Source of the DNA: Limnohabitans sp.
GTDB taxonomy: Bacteria; Bacteroidota; Bacteroidia; Flavobacteriales; Flavobacteriaceae
DNA: 64,000 nucleotides
Reading direction: 5' to 3'
NCBI GenBank assembly: GCA_030053945.1
Contig: JASGCW010000009.1
Location: forward strand, 1,690 to 65,689
Shown here piece after piece: positions 3,270-52,613 of this stretch. Position 1 is the first letter of the stretch. The number at the start of each line of letters is the position of its first letter. The position numbers were made by a program, and so were the translations under genes. The notes under the pieces are model-generated. The model was not told where the DNA came from, did no database searches, and saw only the letters and a program-made list of their open reading frames with translations.

Positions 3270-4027
3270 TCATTCTATAATTAGTTCATTAATTTCTGAT
3301 AAATTATGTTCTTGATTATGGAACTCGATAAAATTACTTTTATTTCCGTATATGTCTAAAATTTCTTCTCTTTTAATTTTTGTTTTTTTGTCTGATACAA
3401 CACTTTCATATGTTTAAATTTTATTTTTCAGCGGTAACATATGGTATCCCTTTTTTAATCATTGGTGTTTACCTCACTTAGCATTTATTTTTATAGGTGT
3501 TCAGTGAATATATTTGCATACGCAAACTACTTGTTTATGGGGATTTCATATGATGACCAAGGATATAAACTCATTTTATCTGTAAATCCGTGTTGAACAG
3601 GGTTGTTGTGGATATAATAAATGAGATTTTTAAGATAGCGTTCTGATATCACTTTTTTTCTTTCAAAAGGAACTTCAAAAAGACTTCCAGTTCGTTTGAA
3701 TTTTTTATTTATCGCTTGTGTGTAAGCGTTAAAAAGATATCCAAATTGTCTTGAAGGTTCAATAACATTTGCCTTTTCTACTGTTGAATATTCTAATTTA
3801 TCTATTTCAATTTCATAGGGTAATTTTAGATAGACTAAAATATGAAAATGATTTTTCAGTAAACACCAAGCATAAGTTTCAGCAATAGGAGAAAAATACT
3901 TATCATAAAGTCTTAAAAAATGGAAATAACTTTCACTATCAAAAAAAACATCTATTTTATTATTACCTCTATTATAAATGTGGTAATAATTTCCAGTTTC
4001 TAATGGTAATGGTTTATAGGATTTCAT
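3270..4027 (-). pseudogene. REP-associated tyrosine transposase (RAYT, Y1/HUH), disrupted by a 140-bp insertion
   Basis: YYHIYNRGNN, HUH motif NHFHILV, YIHNNPVQHG and YPWSS. Removing 3411-3550 joins ...PWSS in frame to YESVVSDKKTKIKREEILDIYGNKSNFIEFHNQ...IE* (3410-3270), giving a 205-aa protein. Confidence 0.85.
3411..3550. mobile_element. 140-bp non-autonomous inserted element, copy 1
   Basis: Flanked by TTTCATA(TG) direct repeats at 3404-3412 and 3544-3552; interrupts the RAYT frame; homologous copy at 27763-27856. Confidence 0.8.
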
Positions 4028-42311: not shown

Positions 42312-42451
42312 ACCTTTTAAAAGACAAATATTTAAACACTTTTAACGATAACATTTTTCTGGTCTATACTAAAATGCATTGTATGATAATGATACTAATT
42401 GCACCCCTATGAAACCATATATTTCAAAAATTTTGACTAATGTAAATTTAT

Positions 42452-42515
42452 TTCGTTCAACAGCTAAGGTCGTTGCGTGCGAAGCACGAACAATGAAACC
42501 TTAGCTGTTGTGTGC
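42452..42515. repeat. attC-like imperfect palindrome
   Basis: CAACAGCTAAGG (42458-42469) / CCTTAGCTGTTG (42499-42510) perfect stem, bulged inner stem and a CGTGC-GAA-GCACG apex, just after the SEFIR stop. Confidence 0.6.
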
Positions 42516-42523
42516 AGTTATTG

Positions 42524-43618
42524 TTAAAATTTGTGATTCTGTGTTTCTTTACTTTTCAAAACTGAATCAGGATCTCCTTGTTCAGGTATTTCATCGTAAT
42601 TTCTAAATTCGATTTCTTTTTTAAGAATCATTGAATCATAATCAAGCTCAAACGGTTGAGAAGATCCTTTCGGGTTTTGTATACCACAAGTGATATAAAA
42701 ATATCCAAGCTTTTTATATTCTTCTTTGAATTTTTTTAAACTAGGAGATTCTCCTTCGACATATATCCTATGAAACCTCTGATTTACTGCAATAAATTCT
42801 ACCGCTTCAGCTCCTTCCTTTGAATCTAAAAAATCTTTGAAAACGTCAATATTTTCTCCAACTAGAACGAAATAACCATTCTTTTGGTTCGGCACTTTTC
42901 CTTCTACAATTGACACTCTCAATCTTTCGGATTCGTCTTCTTGACCGATTATGTTTATTAAGCGGGAAAATAGCTCCTTTCCCTTTTCCATTGTTTCAAA
43001 GAATAAAATTACAACTGGAGGTTTTTTACTATTCTCATCCCATAAATATCCTACACCATTTTTCCAATTAGCTTTCTTCCAATCACTTTGTTTAATAAAT
43101 TCTGAGATAAAAAGTGTTTTTCTTTCCTTTTCTGGCAATTCTCTCAATTTACCTAATTCAGGTTTCTTCGTTTTTTGTCCGCGTAATCTCCAATAAAGTT
43201 TTTCATAAGAATCTTTATCATCAACATTATAGAATGTTGCCCCTTGTAAAGGCTCTGGAATGTTTTCAAATTTTCCGTCTTTAAAGAGTACAGGAATAAA
43301 TTTGGTGTTATGTGATCCGGCATTATAAAGTTGCTGATATATTAAGGTACTTTCCCATTTAATACCATTTCCTTTTTCATCTGTTCCCATTACTCGATTG
43401 TAATAGGTTTCAGTACAAACTACTAATACGAAATCTGAATTTTTAACATTTCTGTCCATCCATTTTGGCCAGCCTTCAGGTGGTGAATCCTCATATTGGT
43501 CAAGACTGCAATCAATGCCTTCATTTCTTAATTCGTCTGATAATTTAAGAACTCTGTCCTGATGTTCTTTACTATCGTGACTATAGCTTATAAATACTTT
43601 CGGATTAGTTTCTTCCAT
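42524..43618 (-). CDS. SEFIR (TIR-like) domain protein with an unrecognised C-terminal domain; putative anti-phage gene
   Basis: KVFISYSHDS..H..RVL.LSD.LR..GID..LDQY, GWPKWM, SDFVLVVCTETY, GIKWE, KFIPV. Likely start is the ATG at 43618. Confidence 0.8.
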   Translation of the reverse strand: MEETNPKVFISYSHDSKEHQDRVLKLSDELRNEGIDCSLDQYEDSPPEGWPKWMDRNVKNSDFVLVVCTETYYNRVMGTDEKGNGIKWESTLIYQQLYNAGSHNTKFIPVLFKDGKFENIPEPLQGATFYNVDDKDSYEKLYWRLRGQKTKKPELGKLRELPEKERKTLFISEFIKQSDWKKANWKNGVGYLWDENSKKPPVVILFFETMEKGKELFSRLINIIGQEDESERLRVSIVEGKVPNQKNGYFVLVGENIDVFKDFLDSKEGAEAVEFIAVNQRFHRIYVEGESPSLKKFKEEYKKLGYFYITCGIQNPKGSSQPFELDYDSMILKKEIEFRNYDEIPEQGDPDSVLKSKETQNHKF

Positions 43619-43877
43619 TGCATTGGGTTGTTTATAATTTCGCACAACTCATAAATATCCACAATACTACAAAATAATTTTTTGTAGTGCTAATTTTTAT
43701 AGTCATAGGCTATTTGAAATTTTACAAAGTTTGTATATAAAAAATACCAATTGCGTATTTTTTATATTTATGTAATTTAATATACAAAATACGCTGTATG
43801 TTTTATAACAAAGTAGGGTTCTATAAGTAAGGTAGTAAAAAACACTGACACTCTAATACAGTGTAATGAAAATAAAG

Positions 43878-51872: not shown

Positions 51873-52613
51873 TTAGTTCAATAAATCAGGTCTGTACTCA
51901 AAATGCATCGTATCATAATGATACCAGTTTCCACCCCAAATAAAACCGTATTTTTCGAAGATTTTGACTAATTCTAATGGAATTTTATTTTTGTATTTGA
52001 GTTTTGCATTTTCGTTAGTACACTTACAATCCCATTGCCAGTAGTTAGAAAATTGGGTATTAATATCTATAGTCATTCCAAAACTATGCATACTTAATCG
52101 GTTAGTGCCTGCAATTTTCCGCCAATTAAATGTCCCTGCAATATTTTTAAGATAGTTTTTAAATTCAGGATGTGAATCTAATTCTTCACTCAATTTTTTA
52201 ATGACTTTATCAACATTATTCACTCTGGTCACTTTAATCTTCTGATTAACTAATTTTGGACACCAAATTATTTCTACTAAATTCCTTTCTACAGCTGATT
52301 TTGTTTCTCCATATATTTTTTTAAAAAAATTTTCATTTCTAACACGCCCAGCATCATTAAGTCCAGCTTTATTTGAATCATATTTAAAATGAAACATATC
52401 TTCAATATCTGGATTTTCTAATAATTCTTTTTCAGTTTTAACTTTTCCATCATCGTAAATCAAGGAAGAACCATCTTTAAAAACAACTTGATTATTTTTA
52501 ATTTCTTTGATTTGGGGGTAATAATTTAATATTGATTTAATAGTTTGGTTTTCATTGTTTTGACTATAACCAATTTTAGTAATAGTTAAAATAAACCAGA
52601 ATAAATATTTCAT
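51873..52613 (-). CDS. M15 family zinc peptidase (peptidoglycan D,D- or L,D-peptidase)
   Basis: FNWRKI, SMHSFGMTIDIN, WGGNWYHYDTMHFEY. Start at MKYLF (about 52613) is approximate. Confidence 0.8.
   Translation of the reverse strand: MKYLFWFILTITKIGYSQNNENQTIKSILNYYPQIKEIKNNQVVFKDGSSLIYDDGKVKTEKELLENPDIEDMFHFKYDSNKAGLNDAGRVRNENFFKKIYGETKSAVERNLVEIIWCPKLVNQKIKVTRVNNVDKVIKKLSEELDSHPEFKNYLKNIAGTFNWRKIAGTNRLSMHSFGMTIDINTQFSNYWQWDCKCTNENAKLKYKNKIPLELVKIFEKYGFIWGGNWYHYDTMHFEYRPDLLN

Follow-up and report, generated by a model that had tools for sequence, protein, structure and literature searches.

A probable gene cassette carrying a bSEFIR defence gene in Flavobacterium, and the integron-like family of sites to which it belongs

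Background

Beside the category of clusters of attC sites lacking integron integrases (CALIN) used by IntegronFinder, there is a term for a single attC site that stands without an integrase. A single-gene anti-phage defence, bSEFIR, has reportedly been described by Millman et al. in 2022. The present study concerns a bSEFIR gene in a 64,000-nt stretch of contig JASGCW010000009.1 (hereafter the window; GenBank assembly GCA_030053945.1), which an initial annotation, made from the letters of the sequence, had described as a solo gene cassette with an attC-like site in Flavobacterium. We conclude that the window probably contains one gene cassette of an integron-like gene-capture system found in Flavobacteriia and other Bacteroidota, given the boundaries that this gene shares with its homologues in other genera, the resemblance of its upstream junction to attI sites, and the cassette arrays that follow a tyrosine recombinase gene in relatives.

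Surveys of integrons treat the Bacteroidota as nearly integron-free (10.1101/2022.02.28.482270; 10.1101/2024.07.02.601686). In the work on IntegronFinder 2.0, the Bacteroidetes are credited with one complete integron, in Salinibacter, and had only In0 before 2022 (10.1101/2022.02.28.482270), a 2024 preprint cites the Bacteroidota to illustrate clades ‘previously found without any integrons’ (10.1101/2024.07.02.601686), and IntegronFinder found none in two genome papers on Flavobacteriales (PMC11523902, PMC13063519). Reviews count the Bacteroidota among the phyla with integrons detected and give no detail (PMC8618304). In the literature on integrons of Flavobacterium, Flavobacteriales, and Bacteroidota, we found no description of the recombinase and site family reported here, an absence that is not proof.

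Results

Boundaries of the bSEFIR cassette

The 364-aa protein matches the PADLOC bSEFIR model PDLC03957 over its full length (E = 1.4e-60, residues 1-351 against profile positions 35-380 of 412) as well as the Pfam families TIR_2 (1.8e-18) and SEFIR (1.5e-17); the label of defence gene that it had been given is therefore right, with the anti-phage role being predicted from sequence. Reading in the gene’s direction, GTTGTGC (43648-43642) lies 24 nt ahead of the ATG at 43618, and a crossover (marked ↓) at G↓TT, 43648/43647, leaves a leader of 29 nt between the crossover and the ATG. This side of the cassette, which bears the R' box, reads GGATATTTATGA↓GTTGTGCG (G = 43648), followed by 24 nt of leader, and at the other end the stop codon TAA (42526-42524) is followed by the R'' box GCACACAAC (42515-42507), which runs into a hairpin at 42509-42459. 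On re-reading the sequence, the positions of all the letters named in the initial annotation were confirmed. The complementarity of GTTGTG with CACAAC, which amounts to 6-7 nt over 1.1 kb and is trivial alone, is significant because the boxes recur in the homologous loci of other genera.

Full-length homologues with 58-75% amino acid identity were found in seven genomes of other genera, in a patchy distribution across the Bacteroidota, and five of the seven (from Arenibacter, Saprospiraceae, Tenacibaculum, Allomuricauda, and a Flavobacteriales metagenome-assembled genome) carry both complementary boxes in the same places. The R' box is GTTGTGCATAATTA, 20-27 nt ahead of the ATG, in four of these loci and the variant GTTGGGAAT in the fifth, that of Allomuricauda; R'' lies at most 12 nt past the stop codon in all five as AACTATGCACAAC or a variant, taking the forms ATGCACAAC, ATGCGCAAC, ATGCCCAAC, or AAGTACAAC at the matching position. 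Across 1.1 kb, two loci have a reverse-complement match between R' and R'' of 9/9, two have one of 8/9, and the remaining locus has one of 7/9. In Allomuricauda (L068; here and below, genomes are labelled G, contigs C, and loci L), a T-to-G change in R' is offset by an A-to-C change in R'', producing the pair GTTGGG/CCCAAC by a compensatory double change, and the pair in L067 contains one G.T change. Similarity among the loci stops exactly outside the boxes (5' of the G at the upstream end), where the flanks are unrelated, and the sequence of the hairpin itself differs in the other genera with the boxes kept. The boxes are not simply expression signals of bSEFIR, since the two remaining homologues, L063 (in a type I restriction-modification locus) and L065, are without them. 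Complementarity kept between boxes 1.1 kb apart points to pairing in a circular unit, the hallmark of an integron cassette, and both G↓TT boundaries and an R' complementary to the cassette’s own R'' were found in the window and in relatives.

The initial annotation had placed the cassette at a secondary site. We compared the junction with attI cores, taken as the sequence between the recombinase stop codon and the first cassette in relatives (Table 1), and found that the 5' junction in the window, TATTTATGA↓GTT (core GGATATTTATGA), matches the cores that lie 3' of the recombinase gene; the junction is therefore not an arbitrary secondary site. The 12-mer TATTTATGAGTT is identical in G339 and occurs six times in the 5-Mb genome to which the window belongs, one occurrence being the window junction and another, at C266:38155, lying inside a region similar to the attI region of G339. 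A third attI-like core, at C306:5150, precedes a compact cassette with the perfect R'/R'' pair GTTAGCAGC/GCTGCTAAC. The stretches C306:3850-5256 and C266:37176-38160 hold these two further attI-like cores, TATTTACGA↓GTT and TATTTATGA↓GTT, respectively, and the core on C306, whose contig ends 100 nt upstream, heads compact cassettes beside a cytosine methyltransferase gene. Ahead of the attI-like core in the window, neither a recombinase gene nor a remnant of one was found.

Recombinase-linked arrays in relatives

In Arenibacter sp. 6A1 (L062), a gene for a 391-aa tyrosine recombinase (113-1288) heads an array of six tiled cassettes in the same orientation; every cassette has a separate R'/R'' pair, and bSEFIR occupies the sixth and last. 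In Flavobacterium G042, the orthologous recombinase gene is followed after about 95 nt by ..CCTATATATTA↓GTTATGGGT and then by at least 24 cassettes; a perfect 9-nt pair of the form GTTN6..N6AAC, different for every cassette, encloses each of them, with 119-121 nt between consecutive pairs. The recombinase-proximal 13.3 kb of G042 contains 14 perfect GC-rich 9-nt pairs against an expectation of 0.37 (maximum of 3 in 500 shuffles). Twenty-three inter-cassette sites, which are compact attCs of 135-140 nt including the boxes, share one fold in which 14 of 17 pairs show compensatory double changes; imperfect palindromes conserved in structure over sequence, as is characteristic of attC, are thus present in relatives, and the site in the window is incomplete.

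Orthologues of the recombinase lie upstream of arrays and co-oriented with them in G271, G339, G042, G105 (two loci), G140, and G218. An integrase and an attI beside an array were seen in these six genomes and in Arenibacter, and not in the window or its genome. The cargo of the cassettes includes toxin-antitoxin genes, as read from the sequences, and defence genes of the DndD/PbeC, DndH/HerA, NsnA, and ATPase types. Further hairpin sites and a linked tyrosine recombinase, for which the initial annotation had advised a search, were both found, with arrays in relatives, and its reading of the locus as a solo cassette of a Bacteroidota-specific system gained support from the recurrence of the boxes in five loci and from arrays that start at a recombinase and attI. 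The recombinase-proximal array of L061 (G105 C1:226-246 kb), with DndD/PbeC-like (E = 1e-88), DndH/HerA-like, NsnA-like, and Mrr-like nuclease cassettes, is a defence island made of cassettes.

The recombinase family consists of Phage_int_SAM_4 and Phage_integrase domains with about 75 N-terminal residues that have no domain match, and its homologues number in the thousands in public data, where they are labelled only ‘tyrosine-type recombinase/integrase’, ‘site-specific integrase’, or ‘XerD’. The genome of the window has one orthologue (C307:403-1434), 51% identical to the recombinase of G271, which stands at the start of its contig and is followed by convergent housekeeping genes. No canonical IntI above the cut-off was found in this genome or in the five genomes with bSEFIR homologues that were searched. 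Three ORFs (open reading frames) of 119-134 aa in this genome (C14:20527-20931, C25:5783-6166, and C92:7864-8223) comprise only the C-terminal third of a tyrosine recombinase, ending in ..ESPLDK and having a common start point, with defence-like genes (methylase, helicase, ATPase) next to each of them.

The hairpin family and the copy in the window

About 20 strong relatives of the window hairpin occur in this genome, clustered at a spacing of about 1 kb on the small contigs C286 and C309 and on C266, and standing singly elsewhere. Every ORF in the arrays on C286, C309, and C266 is co-oriented and ends 9-45 nt ahead of a repeat, and 17 of the 20 copies in the genome lie at most 45 nt after a co-oriented ORF. 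The canonical unit of 200 nt matches 104 of 401 Flavobacterium species genomes, with a hairpin that is 80-92% identical, and among 66 copies fetched from about 45 species, 55 have a co-oriented ORF of at least 60 codons that ends -10 to 45 nt before them. Between species, the arms covary (AGAG/CTC, AGGG/CCC, AAGG/CCT), as does the apex (CGTGC/GCACG, GGCTC/GAGCC). For 20 of 27 hairpin-type sites, the R'' and a GTT-box upstream of the site’s own ORF match at 8 or more of the 9 positions (9/9 in 5/5 cases in G271), against 7 hits in a downstream control drawn from at most 23 sites with enough downstream sequence.

The long units in the arrays begin with R'' (N6AAC), which is followed by AG and the hairpin, by GTTGAA-CGGAAC, and by a conserved tail ahead of a true terminator; next comes, in many cases, a reversed N-terminal remnant of an insertion sequence (IS) transposase of IS1182-like type, then the IS inverted repeat ..TTTTTTCACAGACTGAC, after which the unit is closed by ↓GTTN6, the R' that is complementary to the following cassette’s own R''. 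The heptamer GTTGAAC is constant over the whole family, with the cassette-specific R' lying further downstream, after ..CGGAAC or the IS remnant, and terminal copies, like solo ones, finish with GTTGAACGGAAC, resembling the compact-site ends ..CGGGAAC↓GTT. The 3' crossover that the initial annotation had set at the G↓TT of GTTGAAC is accordingly not supported: this heptamer is probably an internal constant rather than the crossover. Two assignments were tried and dropped, namely GTTGAAC as R' with the tail and terminator as the start of the next cassette (the cassette-specific boxes lie further 3', and the terminal copies have the end just given), and the ‘module’ repeats as part of the site, as they are pieces of a genome-wide mini-element. 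This mini-element, of about 149 nt and with more than 40 copies, is present in the window at 3404-3552, and its inner 49 nt are the ‘module’ that occurs 1-3 times per long attC unit on C286, C309, C289, and C214; the sites have therefore been invaded by this element, in whole or in part.

The window hairpin has the stem arms AACAGCTAAGGT (42509-42498) and ACCTTAGCTGTT (42470-42459), the apex GTGCTTCGCAC (42486-42476), and GTTGAAC at 42461-42455. Folded as DNA, it reaches -19.5 kcal/mol (z = -5.7), which none of 200 shuffles equalled, with a 13-bp outer stem, a one-sided 5-nt internal loop (TTCAT), and a single bulged C in place of the 12-bp stem and AA bulges first described, and the internal GTT of GTTGAAC pairs with the AAC of R''. 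The hairpin tested negative as an intrinsic terminator, being followed by GAACGAAATAAATTT with no T-run, and the terminator scan was silent. The hairpin is single-copy within the window, where no integrase was found, in agreement with the initial annotation. Searches of Rfam yielded no family at E <= 1 for the locus or the array units, save one chance-level match to a small RNA, and base composition was no marker of the cassette, with a G+C of about 0.32 throughout.

The unit in the window breaks off 13 nt past GTTGAAC, and nothing further downstream matches the array units; GTTGAACGAAATAAATTTAC is 19/20 identical to array copies on C286, C309, C289, and C266. The flanks of the hairpin are in the orientation of the gene, and for its inner 40 nt the better match to the family is on the opposite strand (46.9 vs 19.2 bits). 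Canonical copies have 3 extra bases on the R''/L'' arm, an asymmetry that is gone in the window copy, and the symmetrised form could stem from a flip between the arms or from a template switch. The attC-like site proposed by the initial annotation thus stands as to R'' and the hairpin and falls short of an intact attC. With its attC symmetrised and missing the distal end, the cassette has probably become stranded, fixed in place. Other symmetrised copies with CTTAG/CTAAG in both arms, like that in the window, were found at C152:5489 and C162:10000 of this genome and at L056 5044, with flanking boxes that are GTTGYRY-like, not GTTGAAC. The 85-nt repeat downstream of the cassette (42358-42445) is 82% identical to window positions 51886-51972 and is also present in the relative G008.

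Table 1. Features of the bSEFIR locus, with positions in the window, and attI cores used for comparison (↓, crossover)
Feature	Positions	Strand	Description
Convergent ggt gene, stop	42311		About 140 nt beyond the hairpin in the gene’s direction
FAD/Fe-S oxidoreductase gene, end	43916		Followed by a 267-nt spacer before the junction
attI-like junction region	43649..43700	(-)	Small hairpin ACTACAAAAAATTATTTTGTAGT, then core GGATATTTATGA up to the crossover G at 43648
Cassette 5' end	43619..43648	(-)	R' box G↓TTGTGCG and short leader GAAATTATAAACAACCCAATGCA to the ATG
bSEFIR anti-phage gene (predicted role), 364 aa	42524..43618	(-)	N-terminal SEFIR/TIR domain and family-specific C-terminal domain
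R'' box GCACACAAC	42507..42515	(-)	9-17 nt past the stop codon; complementary to the cassette’s own R'
Hairpin of hairpin-type attC, symmetrised form	42455..42509	(-)	Closes with the family constant GTTGAAC
Array-context remnant GAAATAAATTTAC	42442..42454	(-)	Start of the mini-element ‘module’ that comes after GTTGAAC in the arrays of this genome
Unrelated 85-nt repeat	42358..42445		Occupies the space toward ggt in place of the missing 3' part of the attC
attI core, G339			GCGCCTATTTATGA↓GTT
attI core, G271			GCGTATATTTAAGA↓GTT
attI core, G042			CTATATATTA↓GTT
attI core, G140			ATATATACTA↓GTT
attI core, G105			ATATATACAA↓GTT
attI core, Arenibacter			GGATATAACGA↓GTT
Matching core, window			GTGGATATTTATGA↓GTT

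Insertion sequences at the sites

In G339 (L055 17164-18726), an intact IS1182-like element with a 520-aa transposase and the inverted repeats GTCAG(G/T)CTGTGAAAAAAC interrupts a compact attC precisely at the junction of ..CGGAAC with GTT, and decayed IS1182-like copies close nearly every long attC unit in the arrays of the window’s genome (C286, C309). The precise position of the former and the recurrence of the latter therefore suggest, from a few cases, an IS family that targets the attC crossover. A gene for an IS110-family transposase follows directly after the R'' of bSEFIR in two genera (L062 6451-7506, Arenibacter; L068 6211-7179, Allomuricauda). One cassette array of G271 (L051/L052, C1:997-1016 kb) contains seven IS91-family copies, in each of which the Y2 transposase (443 bits to NF033538) is preceded by a 181-aa tyrosine recombinase.

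Discussion

The boundaries of the unit, its conservation and covariation across genera, the family of sites, the arrays, their linkage to a recombinase, and the identity of the defence gene carry our reading of the locus as an integron-like cassette that comprises, from the G↓TT at 43648/43647, a leader, the bSEFIR gene, the R'' box, and a hairpin-type attC. In a free circular cassette, R' (GTTGTGC..) would pair with R'' (..GCACAAC) and so close the folded attC as in integrons, and a tyrosine recombinase of Xer/IntI-like type, for which the product of the C307 gene is the candidate, would join the cassette to the attI-like core ..TATTTATGA↓GTT. The unequal spacers of the compact sites and the 3 extra bases on the R''/L'' arm of canonical hairpins hint that the recombinase may act on a folded single strand, the bottom one, guided by extrahelical bases. 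The bSEFIR gene is presumably expressed and protective, and even a cassette fixed in place could still serve as a single-gene abortive-infection defence.

Several observations weigh against this reading. We infer from sequence comparison that this recombinase performs the recombination, and its gene on C307 has no attI or array beside it, the attI-like cores of this genome lying elsewhere. On the IntI model TIGR02249, whose cut-off is 265 bits, the family reaches 188-203 bits, always as a two-part match that omits model positions of about 177-240, and it does about equally well on XerA, XerC, and XerD; the IntI-specific additional domain, around patch III, is absent from the recombinase. G256 and G265 have hairpin copies without an orthologue of the recombinase, and a long distance separates the two in G050 and G112. 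In the window itself, R' and R'' (GTTGTGCG vs CACACAAC) are complementary at 7 of 8-9 positions and the attC is without its distal half, the L'/R' end; the crossover of hairpin-type sites, probably a few nt beyond GTTGAAC, is placed approximately. As for an empty site, ggt and the oxidoreductase gene are adjacent in none of 400 genomes of the genus (the stretch from ggt to the oxidoreductase gene was searched for in 40 relatives and then in these 400), and the best nucleotide identity was at most 76%.

As the recombinase is without the IntI-specific domain, we call the system integron-like and stop short of classing it as an integron. The same feature bears on the possibility, which we consider unlikely, that a Xer system of the ‘dif-module’ kind acts on double-stranded sites flanking the modules and that the likeness to integrons is architectural only. 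The recombinase is co-linear with XerA and has no IntI domain to read extrahelical bases (the alignment to XerA (4A8E) is continuous, whereas that to VchIntIA (2A3V) skips chain residues 214-248), its modules are bracketed by inverted boxes, and the palindrome AAC↓GTT is found at many junctions. However, the sites are imperfect palindromes of 120-145 nt in which structure is conserved and sequence variable, and the covariation of 14 of 17 pairs suggests that they function as a fold. The boxes are specific to each module and do not represent a conserved 28-bp XerC/XerD site, and all the cassettes are co-oriented, an attI lying next to the recombinase; the 28-bp XerC/XerD sites in alternating orientation that characterise Xer dif-modules (pdif) were not found.

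The gene could also be the passenger of a transposable element, whether IS1182-, IS91-, or IS110-like or a derivative of the miniature inverted-repeat (MITE) kind, the boxes then being the ends or targets of the transposon. This explanation has little probability even though the arrays are rich in IS1182-like ends, in IS91-family copies (the seven of G271), and, after bSEFIR in two genera, in IS110-family genes: these copies are insertions into the sites, the intact element of G339 interrupting ..CGGAAC↓GTT and having inverted repeats of its own, the compact arrays of G042 and Arenibacter display the full pattern of boxes and attC without any IS, and the boxes vary from cassette to cassette, unlike the ends of a transposon.

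That the hairpin is a mere repetitive extragenic palindromic (REP)-like repeat, terminator, or mRNA stabiliser, spreading alone and unrelated to gene mobility, is scarcely probable and already largely refuted, for although it is a multi-copy, highly conserved palindrome after stop codons, with many dispersed singles, in a genome that has a REP-associated tyrosine transposase (RAYT) gene and a MITE-like mini-element, and although a true terminator comes after the hairpin in the arrays, the window hairpin has no T-run and went unflagged in the terminator scan, each copy is preceded by a cassette-specific box complementary to the GTT-box upstream of its own ORF, the boxes of bSEFIR move with the gene across genera despite the differing hairpin sequence, and the arrays begin at a recombinase and attI. 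A terminator or REP unlinked to gene ends, which the initial annotation had named as one result that would overturn it, does not describe copies that follow ORFs in 55 of 66 and 17 of 20 cases, nor does the pattern of RAYT-associated REPs and bacterial interspersed mosaic elements (BIMEs) fit copies tied to the 3' ends of co-oriented ORFs, with cassette-specific boxes and recombinase-linked arrays.

With the locus read as an integron-like cassette, a broader proposition, to which we attach about even weight, is that the Flavobacteriia, and beyond them the Bacteroidota, carry a separate and abundant integron-like lineage whose recombinase never acquired the IntI domain or lost it, so that the domain would not be needed for attC-type capture, and in which attI-like sites apart from the recombinase can receive cassettes in trans, so that solitary defence cassettes, like the one in the window, come to lie among core genes. 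Surveys of integrons depend on the IntI-specific domain and a single attC model; here the logic of integrons (attI, the G↓TT crossover, a folded attC, and self-complementary cassette ends) runs with a Xer-like recombinase, and the hairpin-type site was detected in about a quarter of the sampled Flavobacterium species genomes. The system bears on the origin of integrons from Xer recombinases and on the need for the extra IntI domain, and it offers a route by which defence genes may pass among the Bacteroidota, bSEFIR in this locus and Dnd/Pbe-, NsnA-, and ATPase-type genes in relatives. Cassette boundaries are now directly legible from these genome sequences, and standard attI x attC assays can test the system.

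Among described systems, mobile elements that insert into attC include the IS1111-attC elements and the group IIC-attC introns (PMC11187229, PMC3001079). The insertion sequences reported here resemble the IS1111-attC elements in lying precisely at or in attC and in the IS110-family gene after the bSEFIR R'' in two genera, but at least one belongs to another family, being IS1182-like with terminal inverted repeats. The bSEFIR gene differs from the defence as it is known in being packaged as an integron-like cassette, the gene being known here from sequence. As in CALIN and single attC sites, an attC-type cassette is found away from an integrase, and there are integrase-less arrays in this genome on C286, C309, and C266; unlike CALIN, the window has one cassette with a truncated site and an attI-like 5' junction, which CALIN lack.

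The closest resemblance is to the sedentary chromosomal integrons, in particular the ‘inverted integrase’ group exemplified by Treponema denticola, with which the system shares a tyrosine recombinase, an attI, and mostly single-ORF, co-oriented cassettes, the G↓TT crossover, an R' remainder complementary to the cassette’s own R'', and attC sites of conserved structure and variable sequence, as well as a cargo rich in toxin-antitoxin, defence, and small secreted proteins and insertion sequences that target the attC crossover. It departs from them in a recombinase without the additional IntI domain of about 35 aa and with an extra N-terminal domain of about 75 aa, in differently asymmetric attC spacers (3-5 nt at R'' vs 7-9 nt at R', with ..GAAC↓GTT as the end), and in the enlargement of many sites to 300-450 nt by inserted elements.

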